A stretch of DNA of 64,000 bases from positions 64,001-128,000 of the forward strand of contig JAHPZE010000004.1 in the NCBI GenBank assembly GCA_019058365.1, read 5' to 3'. Source of the DNA: Promethearchaeota archaeon. GTDB taxonomy: Archaea; Asgardarchaeota; Lokiarchaeia; Sigyniarchaeales; SOKP01. This document shows positions 39,898 through 49,110 of this stretch, in pieces. A model generated the notes under the pieces. It was not told the origin of the DNA. It saw nothing but the letters and a program-made list of their open reading frames with translations, and did not search any database. The translations under genes and the position numbers were made by a program. Positions within the stretch are counted from its first letter, which is position 1; every line of letters begins with the position of its first letter.

Positions 39898-41340
39898 TCA
39901 GGGATACTTAAATCTCTTCTTGAATTGTTCCCAACTTTGTGTATCTAAAGGATTCTCATTTAAAAATAAGAAATTCAGACTTTTCAAGCTTTCTATGTTT
40001 TCATTGTTAAATTTTGATATTTGGTTTCGGCCTAAATGTAACATAATTAGATTATTTAAACCCTCTAAACCCTCTAATTCCTTAATATTATTGTTATCCA
40101 GATATAATTCTTGTAAATTATTTAAAATTTTTAACCCTTCAATTTTATTAATCCTATTGTTAGATAATTCTATTTTCTTTAAGTTCACTTGAGTATCAAG
40201 GGCCTCAATTTTTCCTATTAAATTATTTGAGAGGTATAACCCCTTCAATTTAATAAGAGATGACAAACCAGCAATTTGATTAATTTTATTATCATTAAGA
40301 TACAACCACATCAAATTTTTTAAATTATTAAGTCCTCTCATCTGTTTAATTTGATTAAACGCAAGATTTAATCTATTTAACTGCTCTAAACAATCTAAAT
40401 TCTTAATTTCTGAAATATTGTTATGACTTAGATTCAATTCTTCTAATTTTGCTAAATTAGTTAAATTGTCAATTTCCTTAATTTCGTTATTATTCAGAGA
40501 TAATTTTTTCAAATGATGTAAAGAATCTAAGTTATGTATTCTACGAATTTTATTATTCGATAAATTCAAATCTTCTAAATTGTTTAAACTCTCTAAATTT
40601 TCGATCTTTCCTAATTTATTATAAGATAAATCTAAAGTCCGCAGTTTTGTTAGAATTTGGATTCCATCTATACTTTCAAGTTTATTGCGCGCTAATTGAA
40701 GATATTCTAAATTAAATAAACTTTTTAGTTCTAAAATATCAGATACTTTATTTAAATTAGAACTCTCACAATTTAAAGCATACATTTTTCCCTTTCTTAA
40801 AGTTACATGATATCCGCATTTTTTTGTATAAAACTCATTTAAAATCAAATTAATACATACTTCAAGAAACGGTTCAGGGATGGCGTCTTTAAGATTAAAA
40901 CTGTAGATTTCTTGTAAAAAATTACTATTTTTATCGCTAATTTCATTTTTAATTAAATTCTTAAGATATTCAATTACTGCTTTTCGAGCTTTCACACTAT
41001 TTATCGAATTTAAGGTTCTTACTGCATAAAGTCGCAATTCTACGTTATCAACTTTGTTTAGCGTATATTCCAACAAGGAGAGTAATTTCTTGTTGTTCGA
41101 ATACTTTTCTTTTAAAATTTGTCCAGCAATTAATCTAATTTGAAGATTTTCATCAGATAGAAATAATTGTTCAAAAAATTTGAAGTTCCTACCCTCTTCA
41201 ATTATACCATAGCTTTTTAGAGCTTTTTGTCGTATGATTGAATCACTTGAACTGTCAATCCATTCCCTTAAAAGAGCTAAATTTTCTTTCTTTCCTATTT
41301 GCTCTAACTTTTCTTTTATGAAATCTGGATTTAGTTCCAT
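39898..41340 (-). CDS. SDS22-like leucine-rich repeat protein with HEAT-like N-terminus
   Basis: About 11-12 repeats of L..L.L..N.I..I..L. Confidence 0.9.
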   Translation of the reverse strand: MELNPDFIKEKLEQIGKKENLALLREWIDSSSDSIIRQKALKSYGIIEEGRNFKFFEQLFLSDENLQIRLIAGQILKEKYSNNKKLLSLLEYTLNKVDNVELRLYAVRTLNSINSVKARKAVIEYLKNLIKNEISDKNSNFLQEIYSFNLKDAIPEPFLEVCINLILNEFYTKKCGYHVTLRKGKMYALNCESSNLNKVSDILELKSLFNLEYLQLARNKLESIDGIQILTKLRTLDLSYNKLGKIENLESLNNLEDLNLSNNKIRRIHNLDSLHHLKKLSLNNNEIKEIDNLTNLAKLEELNLSHNNISEIKNLDCLEQLNRLNLAFNQIKQMRGLNNLKNLMWLYLNDNKINQIAGLSSLIKLKGLYLSNNLIGKIEALDTQVNLKKIELSNNRINKIEGLKILNNLQELYLDNNNIKELEGLEGLNNLIMLHLGRNQISKFNNENIESLKSLNFLFLNENPLDTQSWEQFKKRFKYP

Positions 41341-41454: not shown

Positions 41455-41718
41455 TTACATCTTATTAAGTGTTTTTGAATCGTCTATAATATCAACATCT
41501 TTTTCCTCTTTGCCTTCAACCTCTTCCTTTAATGTTTTTGAAGGTTTTGATTCATCAAAGGGAGTATTACATATCCAACACACATTTTCAGAATCAGTTA
41601 GAGCCGTAGAACACTTTAAACAGTAAAATGTCTTGCATTCAGGGCAAACATAAGTATTTCTTAAGATTTCGCTTTTACACACAATACAAATTTACTTTTC
41701 TTTAGAAGCTGAAACTAA
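41455..41718 (-). pseudogene. Orphan C-terminal Zn-finger domain fragment
   Basis: Frame reads LVSASKEK*ICIVCKSEILRNTYVCPECKTFYCLKC...CWICNTPFD with an in-frame TAA at 41694; no N-terminal portion. Confidence 0.55.
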
Positions 41719-41741: not shown

Positions 41742-41831
41742 AATACAATAAAAAAAGAAAAATAAAAAACTTATAATATTTATTCCCATGAATTTTGAAT
41801 GAAACCACTTAACGGGTTAGAAGCATCTGTG
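41742..41831 (-). repeat. Displaced copy of the actin 3' end (HRCF* + 3' tail); distal att-like direct repeat
   Basis: 75/90 nt ungapped identity to 47890..47979; minus strand reads CAC AGA TGC TTC TAA. Confidence 0.9.
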
Positions 41832-42036
41832 GGAAACTAGTGGCAATGGAAATAGAGCTTTTTGAAACAACAGCTGAATCGACGAATTTAACTGGCTCAT
41901 GAATCATCTTATTCATAATTTGACAATATAATAAATAAAGATATCAATTATAGATATATTAATTAAGTTCATTTTAGATATAACTTAACATAGAAAAAGA
42001 CAAATTAAAAAAAAAGGAATTATTTGGTATATATTA

Positions 42037-42672
42037 ATGGATTATAATGAATTTCAAGCTCAAAGCATTAAATTAACTGAGGCTCTTAAAAAATACTTAA
42101 ATAAAAAAAATTTTCTTTATTATTTCGAAGATAGCATTCCTGATAGAGCTCTAAGAAGACCCGACATTATAGGACAAGAAAATAAAGAAATGGTATTTTA
42201 TGAGATTAAATCTGGAAAACACATCAATTTTTTTGGAGTTTTAGAGCAATTAAATCAATACATTCAAGAAGGAAAATATAAGAAAGGGTATTTGGTTATT
42301 TCTAAAGGGGTTAATATACCAACTAGAGCTAAGAAATTATATAAAGAGCAAGGATTTGGTATATTGGAATTAGATATAAGTAAAGTTGAACCAGAACCTA
42401 AAAAGATCTTAGAATCAGAGGATCATACGAAAAAAAGTAAAGAATTCATAGAATATAGTAAATATAGGAGTGAATGGGCACAAAAACACCCTGGAAGTTT
42501 ATCTTATCTCAAAGAGATCCTAATTTTTGTATTATGTGGAGAATTTTTAGTCAATGGAATTTGGGACTTAGTTTCTACACAAAATCTTATTTATTTATGG
42601 GTGGTAATCCCAACTAGTATTATTTTAGTTTTAGTATTTTTTTATCTTTACAGAAAAGAAAATAGAAACTAA
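42037..42672 (+). CDS. PD-(D/E)XK nuclease-like protein with two C-terminal TM helices
   Basis: RRPDII...FYEIKSG...LEQLNQY; hydrophobic segments ILIFVLCGEFLVNGIW and LIYLWVVIPTSIILVLVFFYLY. Confidence 0.65.
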   Translation: MDYNEFQAQSIKLTEALKKYLNKKNFLYYFEDSIPDRALRRPDIIGQENKEMVFYEIKSGKHINFFGVLEQLNQYIQEGKYKKGYLVISKGVNIPTRAKKLYKEQGFGILELDISKVEPEPKKILESEDHTKKSKEFIEYSKYRSEWAQKHPGSLSYLKEILIFVLCGEFLVNGIWDLVSTQNLIYLWVVIPTSIILVLVFFYLYRKENRN

Positions 42673-42777
42673 TAGCAAAACGAATTGAAATGGCTGAAAA
42701 ACCTTATAATAAGGATGTCTTAAAAAGGAATTCTCATTTATTAGTAATCATCTATAAATAATAAGCTAGAAAATATT

Positions 42778-43407
42778 ATGAAAATAAAATATTTTTCACA
42801 ATTGTGGTATTCCGAAGATGAAACACTATGGAAATATTATTTAGAGCAATATAAAAAGCGAATCAATAAATCAAATCAAATTAAATTTGATAGATACTTG
42901 GAAAAATTAGAAGAAGAGATGTTAGAGAAATTTTCGCCTGAAAAATGGTATGATTTTCTATTAAATTTCTATTTCAAGTGGAAATATACTCAAGTGAATC
43001 GATATATAAGTCTAACAAATCATATTAAAAAATATAAGCGAGAAAATAATTTAGAAGAACTTAATGCTATAAAAACTGAGTTTTTACTTGCTGATAAAAC
43101 TAAATTAAAAGAATCACTTGAAATATTATGTAAAATACATGGATTAGGTCCGTCGGGAGCTTCAGGATTATTAGCTTTATTATACCCAACACTCTATGGG
43201 ACGATTGATCAATTTGTTATTAAGTCATTACAACAACTTGATGATTTTCCAGAGCTCAAATTCATCAATCCAGATAATCCGAGTGTTGAAGTAGTTGTTT
43301 TCATTATTGAAAAACTACAAAAAAAGGCAGAGGATATGAATAGATTGTTTAAGACCAATTTTTGGACACCTAGAAAATTAGATAAGGTAATGTGGGCATC
43401 CAGATAA
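42778..43407 (+). CDS. Helix-hairpin-helix (HhH-GPD/EndoIII-like) protein
   Basis: LCKIHGLGPSGASGLLALLYP..YGTIDQFV...WTPRKLDKVMW. Confidence 0.55.
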   Translation: MKIKYFSQLWYSEDETLWKYYLEQYKKRINKSNQIKFDRYLEKLEEEMLEKFSPEKWYDFLLNFYFKWKYTQVNRYISLTNHIKKYKRENNLEELNAIKTEFLLADKTKLKESLEILCKIHGLGPSGASGLLALLYPTLYGTIDQFVIKSLQQLDDFPELKFINPDNPSVEVVVFIIEKLQKKAEDMNRLFKTNFWTPRKLDKVMWASR

Positions 43408-43418
43408 TTAATTTTTAG

Positions 43419-43706
43419 CATGAAATTCTTTATTTAGAAATTAGAATAGAATTTATAATTAATTCCGGTGGGAATAACGAAAAGACTTTTTTTAATTTTA
43501 AAAAAGCTGCTGGAAGTATGATATTTCAGGGTTATTTCTGGAAATTATCTAATAATAAACCTTATCAATTTCAAATGAATAATGTAAGAGATAACGCAAT
43601 GTATAGCTCAAAAAAAATGAGTCCTCCAAACCTATCACCTGAAATAAGAAAAGAGAAACTGAAAAAAGGTCTTAATATTTTAGAAGAATTTCTTGAATTA
43701 ATTTGA
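43419..43706 (+). pseudogene. Probable truncated gene remnant
   Basis: Frame open from 43419 with no start until 43518; 62-aa ORF with no recognisable family. Confidence 0.3.
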
Positions 43707-43860
43707 AAGACCGTAGGATAAGCCATTAATTATAAAGGATATGTTTGGTTAGCTTTACAAATAATTAGAAATAAAATAAAAAACCTATATAATTTATCCC
43801 CTTTTGACTTTTAGCAAAATTTAAGATGTTCTAAAAACATCGGTTGATGACTTGATAAAT

Positions 43861-46800
43861 TTAAAAACAATCTAAAACAATCTGGACATCATCATAATCG
43901 TTCTTTTTCAAATCTTCTTCTTTAATGTAAAAATGAAGTCTCCCCCCACCACCCCATCTCCAATTAAGTTGCTCATCATCTCCTAATTGAAGAAGATGAA
44001 TTTGATTAAGGAAAAATGGACCCTCTTGAATCATATCAGCATAGCCAAATAATGCATGATTACTAAACATATGATTATATTCTAAAATTTTACTTCGAAT
44101 TTTTGAATAATTTCCATCAAAAATAGATTCTTCATTACAAGTAAACTTATCTCCTTTCATGAAAAGCAACAATTGAATAGAATCGGAGGGTAGATGGATA
44201 TCAGGATAAAAAGAAATATAACATGTAGGAAATGTATAATTTTTGTTTGATGAAGGATTGTGAGTTTTAAGTAAAACCGATTTATCAACGGCATAATATA
44301 TAACCCTCCATGCACCCTTATTTTTCGGATATTCAATTCCCCAATCTTCTTGTAAAGGATCATAAAAGAAGTAAAGAAATCCCGTATGTGAATGAAATTT
44401 ACTACATTCAAAATCTTTTAAATCTTCTAAATTTAATTGCATTAAAAAACTTAAAGGTCGGTTTTTCCAATAAGGCCACTCGAACTCTGGGGGTACATCT
44501 GGATTTCCACCTAATTTTGAAAATCCTATATTCCGCGGTGATTCTTTCCCAACATAAAGTTTATCTATTAATAACCTCCATTTAACTGCACTCATTATTT
44601 CGTCTTCATAACTACTAAGTTTATTTTTTTTTAATATAGCTCGAAATTTTTCTTTCCAATTTTTTTCATTTCCAGAGGTTTTATATTTTGTAATTTTCAT
44701 TAATGCTGTCTTATTTATTAAATCTGAATCACTACCAATTGTTAATTCTACAGGTAAACTATATATATTCATAGGAGGAATCAATAATGAGTGATTACCT
44801 CCTATATCTAGAAATTTTAATGATTTAAGGTTGTTTGTCGATTCAGGAAGTGAAGTTAATTTATTATCAAATAAATCTAATCTTTCAAGTAAATTTAAAT
44901 TACCAATAGTGTCAGGTAGAGATGTTAAATTGCAATGAGTTAAATCGAGGGCATTTAAGTAAACTAAATTTCCAATTGATTCAGGAAGATAAGAAATATT
45001 ACTGTATCCTAACCAAAGTCTTACAACATGGTTGTTTTTAACTTTGTAAGCATTAAACATCTCATCATGATATCCATAATCAATGATTAGTTGTTCATAG
45101 ATTAGAGCTTGTAGATCTTTAAGAGCTTGAGCTTCAGGAATGGGAAGTGTTTTCTGAAAAAAATTAAAAATAAATTTATCTATTCGATTTCCAAATCCGT
45201 GATATTCGTATCCTTTAAGTCTAATACTTGTGAATATCTGTTTTAATAAATCCAATTGTTGATCTGCGAGTAGTTCAAATAAATCTTCGACTGTTAATAG
45301 AGCTAACCAACCATAAACTTTGATATTAACTATCTCATTATAATCTTGACTCTCAATGAAAGTTCTAATTAGTTTTTGAACAGGATGAGATATACTCATA
45401 CCAATTTTTATCATAAATGCTTCAACTAGGTCCCAAGGATTCTCAAATATTTCAGAATGGAAAATTGTGTAATAGAAATTTCTAATAAATTTTATCATTA
45501 AATCTTCAGAAAGTTTAAAAAGATCTTCTTTTTCTAAATAGTGATATAATTTTAGCCATACCAAGCTTTCAATTTGTCTTTTTTCGCTTTTTTTTAATAA
45601 TTCGATAATTATTTGCTTTATAAGTTTAGAATAATTCTCTGGAAAAACAAATCTCTCAAATTCTCGTTTTTGAAGCTTTTTTACAGCTTCAGTAAACATA
45701 TCTACAGAATAAAGTTTATAATCATTCCAGATATCTTCGAAATCTTTTATATCTAAAAAGTGGAATAGCCTATTATTAAATAGAAAAATTATTTCATCAA
45801 GGTTGGATTCCTTTAAAGCATTAATTATATTTTGTTTAATACTTAAGGATTTAAGACTTTTTATCTTATCTAATTGATTTTCTTCTAATCTAATGAATTT
45901 AAGGTTTTTTAATTTAGATTTTAAATCTGGTATAAATAGGAGCTTATTTTTTCTTAAATCAAGTTCACAAAGATTATGCAAATTTCCTATAGAACTAGGA
46001 ATTGTTAAAAGTCGATTAAAATCCAAATGTAATTTTTTAAGCGAACTCAAATTCCCTATTCTATCTGGAAGTTCTTCTATCTCATTAAAACTTAAATCTA
46101 ATATTTGAAGTTTCTTTAAATTCTCAATTGAAGAAGAAATTTTTACAATTCTATTTGTATTCAAATTTAATTCTTCAAGTTTGGTTAAATCACCTATCCA
46201 ATCAGGGAGAATAGAGATTTTGTTTTCACATATATTTAATTTTCTAAGATTTTTCAGATTTTTAACCCATTCCGGTACCTTTTCAATGTTATTCCATCTT
46301 AAACTTAATTCTTCAACCCAAATTAATTCACCTAACCAATCAGGAAAAATTAGACCTATCGTGGCCATAAAAGATAAACTTTTTAGATTTTTTAGATTTT
46401 TAAGTAAATTTGGGATGTTTTTTGTCTTATAACTGTAATCTAAATGTAATTCTTGAAGCCAAGTCAATTTACCGACAATCTCAGGAACCTCTGGAAGTGT
46501 TTCTAAACATAGAGATAAGGATTTAAGTTTTTTTAAATTAATTAATGAATCTGGTAATGCTTCTAATTTTTCATTATGACTTAAATCTAGTATTTTTAAA
46601 TTAACAAGATTTCCTATTGAATCTGGAAGAATCTCGAAATCATATTCTGAGTAGACTTTTAAACTTTCAAGAGATTTAATATAACCTATTTCTTTTGGTA
46701 CTTTTAATCTTCCATAACCCGAACCTACAATTCTGATTGTTAATTCTTTTAAGTCTAAAGATTTTAAATCTTCTTTATCAATAACATCAATACAATCTTC

Positions 46801-47709
46801 ATAGATTAACCAATTTATCATCTCTTCAGCCTCATCGATACTTTTTAATTTTTCTACAGAATATTGTCTTAAAATTTCTTTTGCATGAATCACTCCTCTA
46901 AATTTGAGTTCTTCTAAGAGTCGAACAGCTTCTTCAATACCAGCATTCAAAACTGGTTCATAATTAAAATCTTCAAAAATTTTATTAATTTCTCCTTCAC
47001 TTATGTTTTTAAAGTATCCATTATCTATAAGAAACCAAAAGGACGAAGGCTCTCCCAGTTTTAGTCTTCTAATTTTTTCTTTCTCTATCATCTCTCTAGC
47101 ATCTGGGTCCCCAATTTCATCAAGTTTTACTAGTATAGAATTTACCACTTCAATATTTTTCGATTTAAAAAGTGCGTTTTTTAAATTTGGATTACTATTA
47201 ATGAAAATTTGCTTTATACAATCTGAATCAAGATATAAATCAAAAAAAGTGTCTTTATTGTAAAATTTTTTATAAAGTAAAAAATCAATCAAATGTAAAC
47301 AGCCACTTTTCAATCTTTTCATTAATTCACCCTTTATAACTTTTTGAGCTATTGGATCGCCTGATATCTCTAATTTGTGTAATAATTGGAAAGCATGTTC
47401 CCCATAAATTAATCTTGTATCATAATTGTTTTTTGCCCATGGATTTAAGTTACTACATAATTTTTCATACCAATATTCAGGGATAAATGATCTTCTTTTA
47501 ACTAATCGTCTTTCTTCTTTTTCCTTTTCATCAATTTTTTCGAGAGCATCATCTATAGAATCAACATTATAAGAAGATTTAACTTCATCAATTGAAATAT
47601 CCATATATTTAAAACTACGCATTTTATATTGTTCTTTTTTAATATAAATCACTGGTTTATTATCTTCTAATTTCACAGTAAGAAATTCATTAATATTGCA
47701 TTCCTTCAA
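43861..47709 (-). CDS. Large LRR protein with C-terminal YwqG/DUF1963 domain
   Basis: N-domain ...NYDTRL...GDPIA; two blocks of LP..IG.L..L LRRs; C-terminal SKLGGNP..P....WP....PLSFLMQLNL...WGGGG.LHFYI...DL. Confidence 0.85.
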   Translation of the reverse strand: MKECNINEFLTVKLEDNKPVIYIKKEQYKMRSFKYMDISIDEVKSSYNVDSIDDALEKIDEKEKEERRLVKRRSFIPEYWYEKLCSNLNPWAKNNYDTRLIYGEHAFQLLHKLEISGDPIAQKVIKGELMKRLKSGCLHLIDFLLYKKFYNKDTFFDLYLDSDCIKQIFINSNPNLKNALFKSKNIEVVNSILVKLDEIGDPDAREMIEKEKIRRLKLGEPSSFWFLIDNGYFKNISEGEINKIFEDFNYEPVLNAGIEEAVRLLEELKFRGVIHAKEILRQYSVEKLKSIDEAEEMINWLIYEDCIDVIDKEDLKSLDLKELTIRIVGSGYGRLKVPKEIGYIKSLESLKVYSEYDFEILPDSIGNLVNLKILDLSHNEKLEALPDSLINLKKLKSLSLCLETLPEVPEIVGKLTWLQELHLDYSYKTKNIPNLLKNLKNLKSLSFMATIGLIFPDWLGELIWVEELSLRWNNIEKVPEWVKNLKNLRKLNICENKISILPDWIGDLTKLEELNLNTNRIVKISSSIENLKKLQILDLSFNEIEELPDRIGNLSSLKKLHLDFNRLLTIPSSIGNLHNLCELDLRKNKLLFIPDLKSKLKNLKFIRLEENQLDKIKSLKSLSIKQNIINALKESNLDEIIFLFNNRLFHFLDIKDFEDIWNDYKLYSVDMFTEAVKKLQKREFERFVFPENYSKLIKQIIIELLKKSEKRQIESLVWLKLYHYLEKEDLFKLSEDLMIKFIRNFYYTIFHSEIFENPWDLVEAFMIKIGMSISHPVQKLIRTFIESQDYNEIVNIKVYGWLALLTVEDLFELLADQQLDLLKQIFTSIRLKGYEYHGFGNRIDKFIFNFFQKTLPIPEAQALKDLQALIYEQLIIDYGYHDEMFNAYKVKNNHVVRLWLGYSNISYLPESIGNLVYLNALDLTHCNLTSLPDTIGNLNLLERLDLFDNKLTSLPESTNNLKSLKFLDIGGNHSLLIPPMNIYSLPVELTIGSDSDLINKTALMKITKYKTSGNEKNWKEKFRAILKKNKLSSYEDEIMSAVKWRLLIDKLYVGKESPRNIGFSKLGGNPDVPPEFEWPYWKNRPLSFLMQLNLEDLKDFECSKFHSHTGFLYFFYDPLQEDWGIEYPKNKGAWRVIYYAVDKSVLLKTHNPSSNKNYTFPTCYISFYPDIHLPSDSIQLLLFMKGDKFTCNEESIFDGNYSKIRSKILEYNHMFSNHALFGYADMIQEGPFFLNQIHLLQLGDDEQLNWRWGGGGRLHFYIKEEDLKKNDYDDVQIVLDCF

Positions 47710-47889
47710 ATCTAATTCTGACCCTTTTTATATTATAATTCTTGTCTTATAATTGTATATGACACTCAAAATTATAAATTATTTTGATCCTATGAGCCTT
47801 TTTAATTTTTATATTAAGGAGTTTCAAAAACCTCAAAAATGTCCCAAATTTTCATATGTATTGAAGTAAGTTAAATTCTAATTAGTAAA

Positions 47890-47918
47890 AATACAATAAA
47901 AAAAGAAAAATAAAAAAC
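47890..47918 (-). terminator. Oligo-T archaeal-type terminator candidate downstream of actin
   Basis: Minus strand GTTTTTTATTTTTCTTTTTTTATTGTATT, about 50 nt after the stop. Confidence 0.5.
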
Positions 47919-47979
47919 TTATAAAATTTATTCCCGTTTAATTTGGGTTAATCTTCTTTGCGGATTAGAAGCATCGGTG
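47890..47979 (-). repeat. Actin 3' end and tail; proximal copy of the direct repeat
   Basis: 75/90 nt ungapped identity to 41742..41831. Confidence 0.9.
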
Positions 47980-49110
47980 AATCACTTGTGGACCCATTTC
48001 CTTGTATTCTCTGCGTGTAACCCACATACGATGGAACGTTTTGAGGGACGAGAGAATGCTTCCACCAATCCATACTGAGTACATACGCTCTGGAGGTGCG
48101 ATAATCTTTACATCAACACTTTCAGGAATTTGCTCCTTAATTTCCTTAGTCAACCTTTCTTTGATACCAGGAAACATTGTGGAACCACCAGAAAGCACGA
48201 TATTGCTGTATAAATCTCTTCGAAGATCAACATCACATTCTGAAATGGCACCTACTATAACATCATCAAGAGGTTCTAATTCTTTACCAATTACACTCGG
48301 ATTAAAGAAACATTCAGGAGCAAGGAATCTTTCGACACCAACATTTATAGTTTCTCCATCAGGAAGCATATAGCTCTTTTCCATCCCAGCTACTTTCTTA
48401 GAAAGCATCATTTCTTTTTCAGGATCAATTGCCACATAGCATAATTTTTCCTTGATATCTCGAACTATTTCTTTTTCTGCTGATGTTGTAAAAGAATATC
48501 CCTTTTGTCGAAGAAGTCTCTGCAAATAGGTTGTAATATCTCGGCCTGCTAGATCGATTCTTTGGATAGCATGGCTTAAGGCGAATCCCTCGAAAATTGG
48601 TACAACGTGGGAAACTCCATCACCAATATCTATAACACATCCGGTAGTACGACCAGAAGCATAAAGACTCAATACTGCTTGCATTGCTACATAAAGAGCA
48701 GGGGTATTGAAAGTCTCAAACATAATTTCAGCCATTTTTTCACGGTTTGGACGTGGATTTAATGGTGCTTCAGTCAAAAGAACCGGGTGTTCACTTGGAT
48801 CGATACGCAAGTCAGTATAAAAAGTGTAGTGCCAGATTTTCTCCATTGCAGTCCAGTCTTCAATGATACCATGTTCAACAGGGAACATTAACTTTAAAAC
48901 GCCCTTTAATTGCATAGCTTCCTCACCAATATAGTACTCCCGAGTATAGTGCTCAACATCAGTCATGATACTTTCATACTTAGGATAACCAATTAGTGTA
49001 GGGAAAACTGACCTTGGTTGATCCTCACCAGCAAATCCATTCTTGGAGATTCCGGTACCATTGTCAACAACCAGGGCTTTTGCATTCAAAAAGCTTTCTT
49101 CCTCTGCCAT
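47965..49110 (-). CDS. Actin (lokiactin)
   Basis: [63 protein letters not shown]-terminal IHRCF; eukaryotic-type actin rather than MreB or crenactin. Confidence 0.98.

Follow-up and report, generated by a model that had tools for sequence, protein, structure and literature searches.

Among the known systems that resemble the locus described here is insertion with long target duplication, which has reportedly also been attributed to Nobusato et al. 2000. In such events an insert of less than 20 kb is flanked by long (>30 bp), variable and imperfect direct repeats (Furuta, Abe and Kobayashi, 2010; PMC2853133), no other mobile element is present, the empty site occurs in a related genome and the target gene is preserved, its start or stop codon often lying within the repeats (PMC2853133). 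The cargo is a restriction-modification system and the hosts are bacteria, mostly naturally competent ones; no archaeal case passed the screen (PMC2853133). Further points of comparison are homology-facilitated illegitimate recombination (HFIR), as summarised in PMC2884548, and the displacement of C-terminal ends in Rhs/CDI loci and in the effector-immunity arrays of the Vibrio cholerae T6SS (PMC5361080). The e14 prophage sits in the icd gene of E. coli, at its 3' end, with icdC as a pseudogene, and excises on SOS induction (PMC13626634). In the additive flexible genomic islands of Alteromonas, cassettes are stacked at a fixed hot spot, some with a direct repeat of the 3' part of the target; cassette content is independent of core phylogeny and the targets are mostly tRNA/tmRNA genes (PMC4898812).

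Repeat-bounded insertions of Asgard archaea include aloposons, HeimV1 (PMC8813620) and Yucahu-i of Atabeyarchaeia (PMC11529989). Their targets are tRNA genes or an 11-12-bp att motif, HeimV1 and Yucahu-i encode integrases, and neither report ties actin to integration (PMC8813620; PMC11529989). Published work on how Asgard archaea gain their many accessory and bacterial-like genes has centred on integrase-bearing elements, viruses and transposons.

Results

The window is a stretch of 64,000 nucleotides of contig JAHPZE010000004.1 from a Promethearchaeota archaeon of the Lokiarchaeia. The 3' end of its Lokiactin gene (copy A) recurs twice downstream (copies B and C; Table 1). Direct comparison of 41742-41831 with 47890-47979 gave 75/90 identical positions, ungapped (terminator 45/46, spacer 16/29, coding end 14/15), and the lone coding difference within this span is the synonymous CGA/AGA, just as a sequence-only reading of the locus had stated. 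The match far exceeds chance: BLAST gives an E of about 1e-20 across the 4.74-Mb genome, with the next non-actin match at 6e-5, and with the T-tract omitted copy C still matches at 47/67 ungapped positions, versus 41/67 at the best other site in the genome. Contrary to that reading, the homology does not stop abruptly at the His codon: another 12 nt are homologous, as far as the Pro codon (41843), and copy C reads P-L-V-S-H-R-C-F-stop. This extension matches the genome's own allele at 7/12 positions, with two non-synonymous changes, and beyond the Pro codon similarity to actin drops to 7/37. Over 104 nt, copy C is 82.7% identical to the allele of relative G065. Copy B, a decayed third end (Q-V-I-N-R-C-F-stop plus tail) that the reading had overlooked and that starts 7 nt past the stop codon of the LRR-DUF1963 gene and may act as a putative terminator for it, is 82.9% identical over 82 nt to the allele of G031 (E 8e-18). 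Its presence indicates that two cargos are stacked behind actin. The duplicated target thus measures 102 nt for copy C and 82 nt for copy B.

Table 1. Features of the actin locus (positions in the window)
Feature	Position	Strand	Evidence or remark
Lokiactin gene, 381 aa, anchor gene	47965..49110	-	Pfam Actin 1.5e-132; genus search
3' part of actin, a mosaic with foreign synonymous tracts	47965..48181	-	SNP map and independent-marker test
Copy A	47890..47991	-	End of the working gene (PQVIHRCF-stop), then spacer and terminator-like oligo-T tract; nearest spacer that of the G027 allele
Short stretch similar to the beginning of the intergenic/promoter region before the 480-aa LRR gene in empty alleles	47853..47889	-	Approximate boundaries
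Cargo 1, 1282-aa LRR + DUF1963 protein, co-oriented with actin	43861..47709	-	Pfam LRR_14 2e-43, DUF1963 4e-37
Copy B	43773..43854	-	Decayed orphan end QVINRCF-stop, spacer, shortened T-tract
Cargo 2b, 209-aa protein, HhH/OGG-glycosylase-like lead	42778..43407	+	Atlas
Cargo 2a, 211-aa protein, hydrophobic C-terminus	42037..42672	+	Weak PD-(D/E)XK nuclease lead only, Atlas 0.83-0.84
Copy C	41742..41843	-	Orphan end to Pro codon; spacer nearest G007/G009/G003 alleles; terminator part 45/46 to A
Zinc-ribbon ORF, truncated 3' remnant of older resident cargo gene	41455..41717	-	Joined 25 nt after copy C
480-aa LRR gene, core downstream neighbour	39898..41340	-	140-162 nt behind actin in empty alleles

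The suggestion that the ends come from different functional alleles was borne out, as the spacers of A, B and C are nearest to G027, G031 and G007, respectively, and each is nearer to some relative than to the other two copies. A generic terminator motif or REP-like repeat was rejected, the full motif being found in the genome only at the three actin-derived sites. A decayed actin paralog was likewise looked for past 41831, and actin remnants were absent past the copy junctions.

The insert is 6.1 kb long and has the same GC content (0.25-0.29) as its flanks, so that composition is uninformative. A DNA search of the genus gave no colinear copy of cargo 1. Cargo 2b scored 0.98 against unnamed Atlas clusters and 0.91 against an OGG-like cluster, with mostly bacterial hypothetical proteins as its nearest matches, and is present in 3/154 genomes of the order. 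Cargo 2a, present in 1/154 genomes of the order and in no other actin cargo, is therefore not a constant gene, and its putative nuclease was dismissed as a mobility factor. PADLOC gave no match on the cargo, and no methyltransferase was found in the insert, where the leads are the weak PD-(D/E)XK and the HhH/OGG-like ones. The promoter-like piece next to copy A was compared by eye with the empty alleles of G015, G031 and G001. The zinc-ribbon remnant is 83% identical in nucleotides to the end of a G027 cargo gene (406 aa there), an identity that continues into the LRR gene; judged from this alignment, it shows an insertion accompanied by deletion of resident DNA. Identity to G027 dips where the LRR gene begins, at 81%, and rises to 96%.

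Comparison of synteny downstream of actin revealed both empty and occupied alleles, supporting the view of the island as an insertion scar. In nine relatives (G005, G031, G006, G007, G015, G001, G010, G061 and G068) actin is followed directly by the 480-aa LRR gene, and orphan actin ends were found in 14 related loci with cargos unrelated to one another (mostly metabolic, LRR or unknown among the best 25 of 72 families). The actin-LRR480 junction is the most variable of 10 neighbourhood junctions, being occupied in 9/16 cases with gaps of 0.7-6.6 kb; most others were occupied in 0-2 of 12-14 cases, and LRR-GNAT has one shared insert. The orphan junctions lie at -19, -20, -23, -25, -27, -45, -47, -50, -68, -113, -118 and -126 or take in the whole gene, with three different ones on the single contig L122, and the duplicated target in relatives ranges from 50 nt to over 1.2 kb. 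Part of this variation could come from later erosion of the orphans, and several of the junctions fall close together, near -19 to -27 and near -45 to -50. L082 and L084 each have a second whole actin gene, and G076 has one that is near-whole. The extra copies in L082 and L122 best match the allele of their own locus, one L122 orphan being 94% identical and young-looking, and the two actins of L084 have different nearest lineages. The same 183-185-aa cargo accompanies a second whole actin in two backgrounds (L082 and L084).

The actin protein is 98-100% identical across the genus and its DNA at least ~80% identical. The working gene matches its close kin G005 up to about -216; between about -210 and -100 its allele is of the G065/G021/G024 type, and beyond that it resembles unsampled alleles. 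Its last ~300 nt are a synonymous mosaic extending well upstream of the orphan junction, with foreign tracts running ~200-300 nt upstream of it; with an onset at about -216 versus orphan junctions at -23 and -26, the donor tract passes the illegitimate joint. Because choosing pairs by 5' actin identity is biased, pairs for a second test were selected by the independent marker Hef. In pairs with Hef at least 90% identical, which comprise only five close and non-independent pairs, the first 850 nt of actin are 96-98% identical and identity then falls to 89, 86 and 79% (saturation level). The mosaic could be secondary, arising through double-crossover spread of cargo after an insertion of another kind.

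Across the source genome we counted 77 non-paralog direct repeats versus 7 inverted ones, with a polarity that keeps genes intact; this census used our own ORF calls and excluded two repeat-rich contigs. Orphans of 3' ends lie downstream in a ratio of 24:6 and those of 5' ends upstream in a ratio of 11:2 (16:4 and 6:1 in a stricter recount), and the median identity of the copies is about 81%. Exact single-copy empty sites exist in kin at four of five testable non-actin repeats. The cargo of repeat C51 is common to close kin, and the region orthologous to C30 is absent in five kin. At C12 and C34 foreign tracts reach beyond the repeat, as at actin. The left-native/right-native switch at C9 is of the kind that a single crossover typically leaves, and C9 fits such a crossover better than HFIR.

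A search of 54 genus genomes gave no tyrosine recombinase close to actin; most of these genomes have one XerA-like enzyme only. The fetched loci also gave none by tblastn with the source genome's two recombinases as queries, a search of lower sensitivity. In the cargos, no recombinase or transposase family was seen among the best 25 of 72 families. The source genome has a second tyrosine recombinase (429-437 aa) on a different contig and no serine recombinase that we could find. Among orphan-bearing genomes, G029, G022 and G023 have the XerA-like enzyme only, and none was detected in G076. No IntI integrase, as an integron would have, was found beside the array, whose repeats consist of gene ends plus T-tracts. 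ComEC and DprA (PF03772, PF02481) were not found in the source genome, so the route of DNA entry known for HFIR species is missing. The sequence-only reading had noted no integrase, and none was found at any of these loci; its proposal of a decayed or trans-mobilised element is not supported, given the variable junctions and many targets. We also rejected actin as a dedicated att site, given the variable junctions, the foreign tracts upstream, the absent recombinase and dozens of unrelated targets.

In run X1, which is source-like, depth is flat at ~85x over cargo and flanks. Since the unitigs are interrupted at the 35-nt identical core, the order is not proven by contigs alone; one 6173-nt unitig spans the diverged part of copy C and the whole cargo without differences, and the same cargo was found in two other samples. 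Runs X4-X15 shared too few words and were left out. A 41769-47962 joint, at 3.8x and with only 20 nt on one side (contigs only), was considered as an excision product and is better explained by the actin end of a related strain. Contamination of the source genome is rated at 6.6%. We consider an assembly artefact unlikely.

Discussion

We consider it probable that the locus arose by stacked, integrase-free additive insertions made by host homologous recombination and anchored on homology. Three allele-distinct ends, empty sites, variable junctions, the 3' mosaic, the lack of an integrase and a genome-wide scar all speak for this model. Weighing against it are the unfound ComEC and DprA, the small number of close pairs behind the identity gradient and the grouping of several junctions. 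Incoming DNA from a related Lokiarchaeon, bringing its own actin 3' part, terminator and adjacent foreign genes, would pair with the resident actin, a gene whose strong sequence conservation between species makes it a hot landing pad, and cross over inside the coding region. Its far end would be joined with little or no homology, either directly (HFIR) or via fragment circularisation and a single crossover. Actin would be restored with a synonymous foreign end, and on the far side of the cargo an actin end of variable length would be left to decay, though it may still serve as a terminator for cargo transcripts. Repeated events, or the import of a pre-stacked array, would give the order A-cargo1-B-cargo2-C. 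Copy B is more decayed than the more distal copy C, in keeping with the import of A-cargo1-B-cargo2 as one preassembled block that displaced C; alternatively, there may have been two separate events, or copy A may be native. We infer the involvement of RadA-type enzymes, the DNA entry route, a linear or circular intermediate and the order of events.

A site-specific integrative element using the actin 3' end as attB, carrying a replacement end, having lost its integrase or receiving it in trans and leaving orphans to erode, would share the architecture of e14 at icd-icdC (PMC13626634). Recurrent use of a single spot, the loose junction clusters near -19 to -27 and -45 to -50 and the second tyrosine recombinase elsewhere in the genome would suit it. 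This reading is nevertheless largely refuted already, and we regard it as improbable: occupied loci lack a recombinase even at the young-looking L122 orphan, orphan-bearing genomes have a XerA-like enzyme only or none detected, orphans reach whole-gene length, foreign tracts lie upstream of the junction, and one genome has dozens of unrelated targets. Tandem duplication of actin within the genome, followed by deletion and gap filling, would account for the whole or near-whole second actins of L082, L084 and G076 and for extra copies in L082 and L122 that resemble their own locus. It is very improbable, being already contradicted here by three spacers each nearer to a different relative, by the lack of actin remnants past the junctions and by the different nearest lineages of the L084 actins. 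An assembly artefact or strain chimera, which forks in the unitig graph at the 35-nt core and the contamination rating might suggest, is scarcely credible in view of the flat depth, the 15 differences between the copies, a single exact unitig for cargo and copy C, the cargo's presence in two other samples and the recurrence of the pattern in independent assemblies.

There is a somewhat better, though still small, chance that the orphans had a rare illegitimate origin and that arrays were built mainly by unequal double-crossover exchange between strains, as has been proposed for the spread of arrays by homologous recombination at Vibrio T6SS loci (PMC5361080). One crossover would lie in actin or its tail and the other between orphan and working end or in the LRR gene, and B and C may have entered the source genome (G000) as passengers. 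The dip in LRR gene identity to G027 and the shared 183-185-aa cargo and second whole actin of the L082 and L084 backgrounds agree with such exchange, as does the resemblance of copy A to the allele of the close relative G027, which means that copy A could be native. It does not, however, account for the first formation of the orphans, nor for the clean, single insertions at many other genes, for which exact empty sites exist. Unequal exchange is a complement to the insertion model more than an alternative.

More speculatively, Lokiarchaeia might possess a host-encoded form of gene capture, distinct from bacterial competence, that routinely integrates short foreign chromosomal fragments, possibly circularised beforehand, at conserved gene ends. 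If true, gene capture would be a main route of Asgard genome expansion, with dozens of fresh scars per genome, and invariant actin a landing pad working across species borders. In a literature search covering few subscription papers, we found no report of such a scar at Asgard actin or genome-wide in Asgard archaea. Diverged direct repeats at gene ends and exact empty sites in kin make the actin locus a countable footprint of an integrase-free route, one that can be scored in any Asgard genome and traced in strain-resolved long reads. At the same time, the most eukaryote-like cytoskeletal gene swaps its last ~100 codons between species with its protein unchanged, and this interspecies exchange is relevant to users of actin DNA as a marker.

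The actin locus works like insertion with long target duplication without being a strict member of that class: it shares duplications of more than 30 bp and of variable length, a 6.1-kb insert and empty sites in kin, but differs in its archaeal host, in which no ComEC or DprA was found, in its cargo without a methyltransferase, and in having copies that come from different alleles, are stacked at one gene and occur at dozens of loci. As in HFIR and displacement arrays, there is one upstream anchor, old 3' ends are displaced downstream sequentially without an integrase, and insertion deletes resident DNA. In displacement arrays a variable toxin tip is displaced and the protein changes, whereas at the actin locus an invariant cytoskeletal housekeeping gene serves as anchor, its end is exchanged synonymously and unrelated downstream genes are gained. 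As at icd, a replacement end restores the gene and the old end is displaced beyond the insert. However, e14 and tRNA/tmRNA-targeting islands carry a recombinase and have a fixed crossover, while no recombinase, fixed crossover or SOS-type excision was seen at the actin locus. It has stacked cassettes in common with the Alteromonas islands, unlike which its target is a protein-coding core gene. Since this class of mechanism is known from bacteria, the surprise is moderate and concerns the host, the target and the scale.

Results

Re-alignment of 41742-41831 with 47890-47979 gave 75/90 identical positions without gaps (45/46 in the terminator, 16/29 in the spacer and 14/15 in the coding end), the same figures as in the sequence-only reading; homology does not stop at the His codon, as stated there, but extends to a Pro codon at 41843 and ends there. 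This displaced, or orphan, actin end (copy C) matches with a BLAST E of ~1e-20, the next non-actin match having an E of 6e-5. Without the T-tract it scores 47/67, against 41/67 for the best competing site of the 4.74-Mb genome (G000); chance is excluded as its source. An assembly artefact is unlikely because read depth is flat (~85x) and a single exact unitig covers the cargo plus the diverged part of copy C. A third, decayed actin end (copy B) was detected using the pooled actin ends of relatives as query. The minus-strand order is actin with its working end A, cargo 1, B, cargo 2, C, a zinc-ribbon ORF and a 480-aa LRR gene, the core downstream neighbour of actin (see table). The zinc-ribbon ORF, joined 25 nt beyond copy C, is the truncated 3' end of a 406-aa gene found at the same spot in the close relative G027 (83% nt identity), and one event therefore both inserted DNA and deleted resident DNA.

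Features of the actin locus and related loci (C followed by a number denotes a contig of G000)
Feature	Location	Remarks
End A	47890-47979	working actin end
Cargo 1		1282-aa LRR-DUF1963 protein, between A and B
End B	43773-43854	7 nt past stop of LRR-DUF1963 gene
62-aa ORF	43518-43706 (+)	between cargo 2 and B; no Pfam match; possibly gene remnant
Cargo 2		two small genes (+), glycosylase-like lead and weak nuclease-like lead, between B and C
End C	41742-41831	
35-codon ORF	41800-41906 (-)	enters C in a frame different from actin's; probably chance
Actin-family gene	C34:311881-313005	84% aa identity
Actin-family gene	C29:20476-21570	51%
Actin-family gene	C16:195667-196755	40%
Actin-family gene	C12:63548-64546	36%
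Actin-family gene	C40:73534-74622	27%
Tyrosine recombinase	C46:203681-204970	429 aa; adjoins 935-aa gene and small ORFs
Insertion L181	C52:38593-44530	
Insertion L183	C9:92459-95576	
Insertion L184	C12:89420-93089	
Insertion L189	C34:294019-299197	
Defence-like island	C39:129605-142722	1.6-14.7 kb past window end
Actin and three orphans	L122:1466-6372	GC-rich actin; orphans of 140-160 nt, each just behind a small AT-rich cargo
Tandem actins	L082:10001-13424	two intact 381-aa genes
Tandem actins	L084:8406-11800	two intact 381-aa genes; chromosomal background differs from L082

Comparison of empty and occupied alleles, proposed in the earlier reading, revealed an empty site in 9 genus genomes, where the LRR gene starts 140-162 nt after actin. 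The position of the next core gene was resolved at 47 loci, of which 19 are empty and 28 carry extra genes, in some cases inherited from a common ancestor. The cargos comprise LRR proteins, transporters, metabolic enzymes and unknowns and are unrelated to one another; the two small genes of cargo 2 occur in 1 and 3 of the 154 genomes of the order. The actin-LRR junction is the most variable of the common neighbourhood (9/16 occupied, gap lengths 0.7-6.6 kb); a single insert is shared at the LRR-GNAT junction, and the remaining junctions are occupied in 0-2 cases. Giant convergent genes lie directly 3' of actin at L035 (G003; 5098 aa, 814 nt past the actin stop), L102 (2944 aa) and L059/L060 (~2000 aa), and at L069 (G053) tandem ~30-nt units of two alternating variants lie directly behind the terminator, 38-209 nt past the stop.

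Coding orphan ends were found in G000 (2), G029, G024, G028, G022 (inverted, upstream), G063 (2) and G076 (2), and at L082, L084, L085, L093, L095, L106 and L122 (3), with tail-only copies in G023, G016, G067 and G009. Their left junctions are sharp yet unequal, at -19, -20, -23, -25, -27, -45, -47, -50, -68, -113, -118 and -126 relative to the actin stop; the longest comprise one near-whole actin gene and complete copies that include upstream DNA. The three orphans of L122, whose lineage is more distant (91% aa), each have a different junction, and the most similar is 94% identical to the working end. L122 was also the sole case of coding orphans among 40 loci with more distant actins or paralogs and 2 kb or more of downstream sequence; in this sample the hot spot thus belongs mainly to this genus-level group. 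No orphan was seen at the 84% paralog of G000. Between their tandem actins, L082 and L084 have the same unknown gene (183-185 aa, 95% identity, without Pfam match). Short actin fragments at L093, L095 and L106, internal and without stop codon (~-77 or -62 to -15/-30; 105-167 nt past the actin stop, just behind the terminator), are deletion relics of older orphans. At L047/L173 (G022) the inverted orphan is found 2.2-2.3 kb upstream of the actin stop codon. Because G013, G036, G028, G018, G025, G012 and G002 have actin in reverse orientation relative to its flanks, the G022 orphan may be a trace of replacement between alleles of opposite orientation.

As a control, G000 was compared with itself, leaving out two repeat-rich contigs, intragenic repeats and paralogs. 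Diverged repeats spaced 0.3-20 kb were direct in 77 cases versus 7 inverted (direct medians: 135 nt, 81% identity, 3.5 kb spacing). Repeated gene 3' ends had the spare copy downstream 24:6 and 5' ends upstream 11:2 (16:4 and 6:1 in a stricter count), the polarity expected if insertion keeps the gene intact. At 4/5 testable loci, G005 and other kin have exact empty sites with a single repeat copy; at the fifth, the cargo is common to close kin. L181, L183, L184 and L189 are clean 2.7-5.6-kb insertions anchored in other core genes (e.g. RFC small subunit/truA-like convergent ends) and flanked by 180-410-nt diverged direct repeats; close kin have the exact empty sites. In three-way comparisons, foreign tracts continue past the repeat on C12 and C34, as at actin, and C9 switches from left-native to right-native within the repeat, the pattern that a single crossover with a circle would leave. 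The island on C39 is partitioned by several direct repeats in intergenic DNA (83-174 nt, 83-91%), the same scar type with non-coding anchors.

Discussion

The sequence-only reading, a mobile element using the actin 3' end as att site, is partly supported: the insertion-type feature is real, and the spacers support ends of different allelic origin. By spacer sequence the nearest alleles of A, B and C are those of G027, G031 and G007, respectively. Simple intragenomic duplication is excluded here, as each end is nearer a relative's working end than the other two. The site-specific part of the reading gained support neither from recombinases nor from the crossover points. G000 has two tyrosine recombinases, both on contigs other than actin's and neither matching any fetched actin locus, and no serine recombinase was found in its genome; the enzyme on C46 and its neighbours may form a small integrated element that has no relation to actin. 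Most of the 54 genus genomes have a single, XerA-like tyrosine recombinase, and none has one near actin, the nearest lying ~125 kb off. Dozens of unrelated 50-400-nt targets are beyond any one integrase. A site-specific crossover would moreover be expected to keep actin upstream of the junction native. G000 actin is 94-99% identical to that of its closest relative G005 (Hef 97.5%) up to ~-216; beyond that point it resembles a G065/G021/G024-type allele, with 1-3 differences per 30 nt, before changing to unsampled alleles. In pairs with Hef identity of at least 90% (n=5, non-independent), mean actin identity is 96-98% in the first 850 nt and falls to 89, 86 and then 79% across the final three windows; distant pairs stay at ~80% throughout. 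Foreign sequence thus extends far upstream of the -23 and -26 junctions, although later homologous exchange could also have blurred the upstream sequence.

We therefore regard the feature as probably an integrase-free recombination scar. In the mechanism that we likewise favour with good, not full, confidence, incoming DNA from a related species would pair with a conserved gene via host recombination, and its far end would be joined illegitimately, directly or following circularisation. Actin may be favoured because its DNA identity within the genus does not fall below ~80%, the gene is followed by a terminator and the exchange leaves the protein unchanged. Neither ComEC nor DprA was found in the G000 genome. 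Copy C lies farther from actin than copy B yet is less decayed, which would fit if an already stacked block had been imported and had displaced C. Unequal double crossovers that exchange ready-made arrays probably contribute as well.

The described Asgard elements integrate at tRNA genes or at short att motifs (PMC8813620, PMC11529989), and a literature search of limited coverage turned up no account of such scars at Asgard actin. Insertion with long target duplication involves long variable repeats, often crossing start or stop codons, an empty site and no mobile element; it is described for restriction-modification genes in bacteria, no archaeal case having passed the screen (PMC2853133). 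What is notable here is the target gene, the stacking and the genome-wide frequency in an Asgard archaeon. The actin scar shares its layout alone with e14 at icd (PMC13626634), and differs from that family in recombinase and fixed crossover; it works instead like insertion with long target duplication (PMC2853133), the HFIR-driven displacement arrays of Vibrio T6SS loci (PMC5361080) and the additive islands of Alteromonas (PMC4898812).
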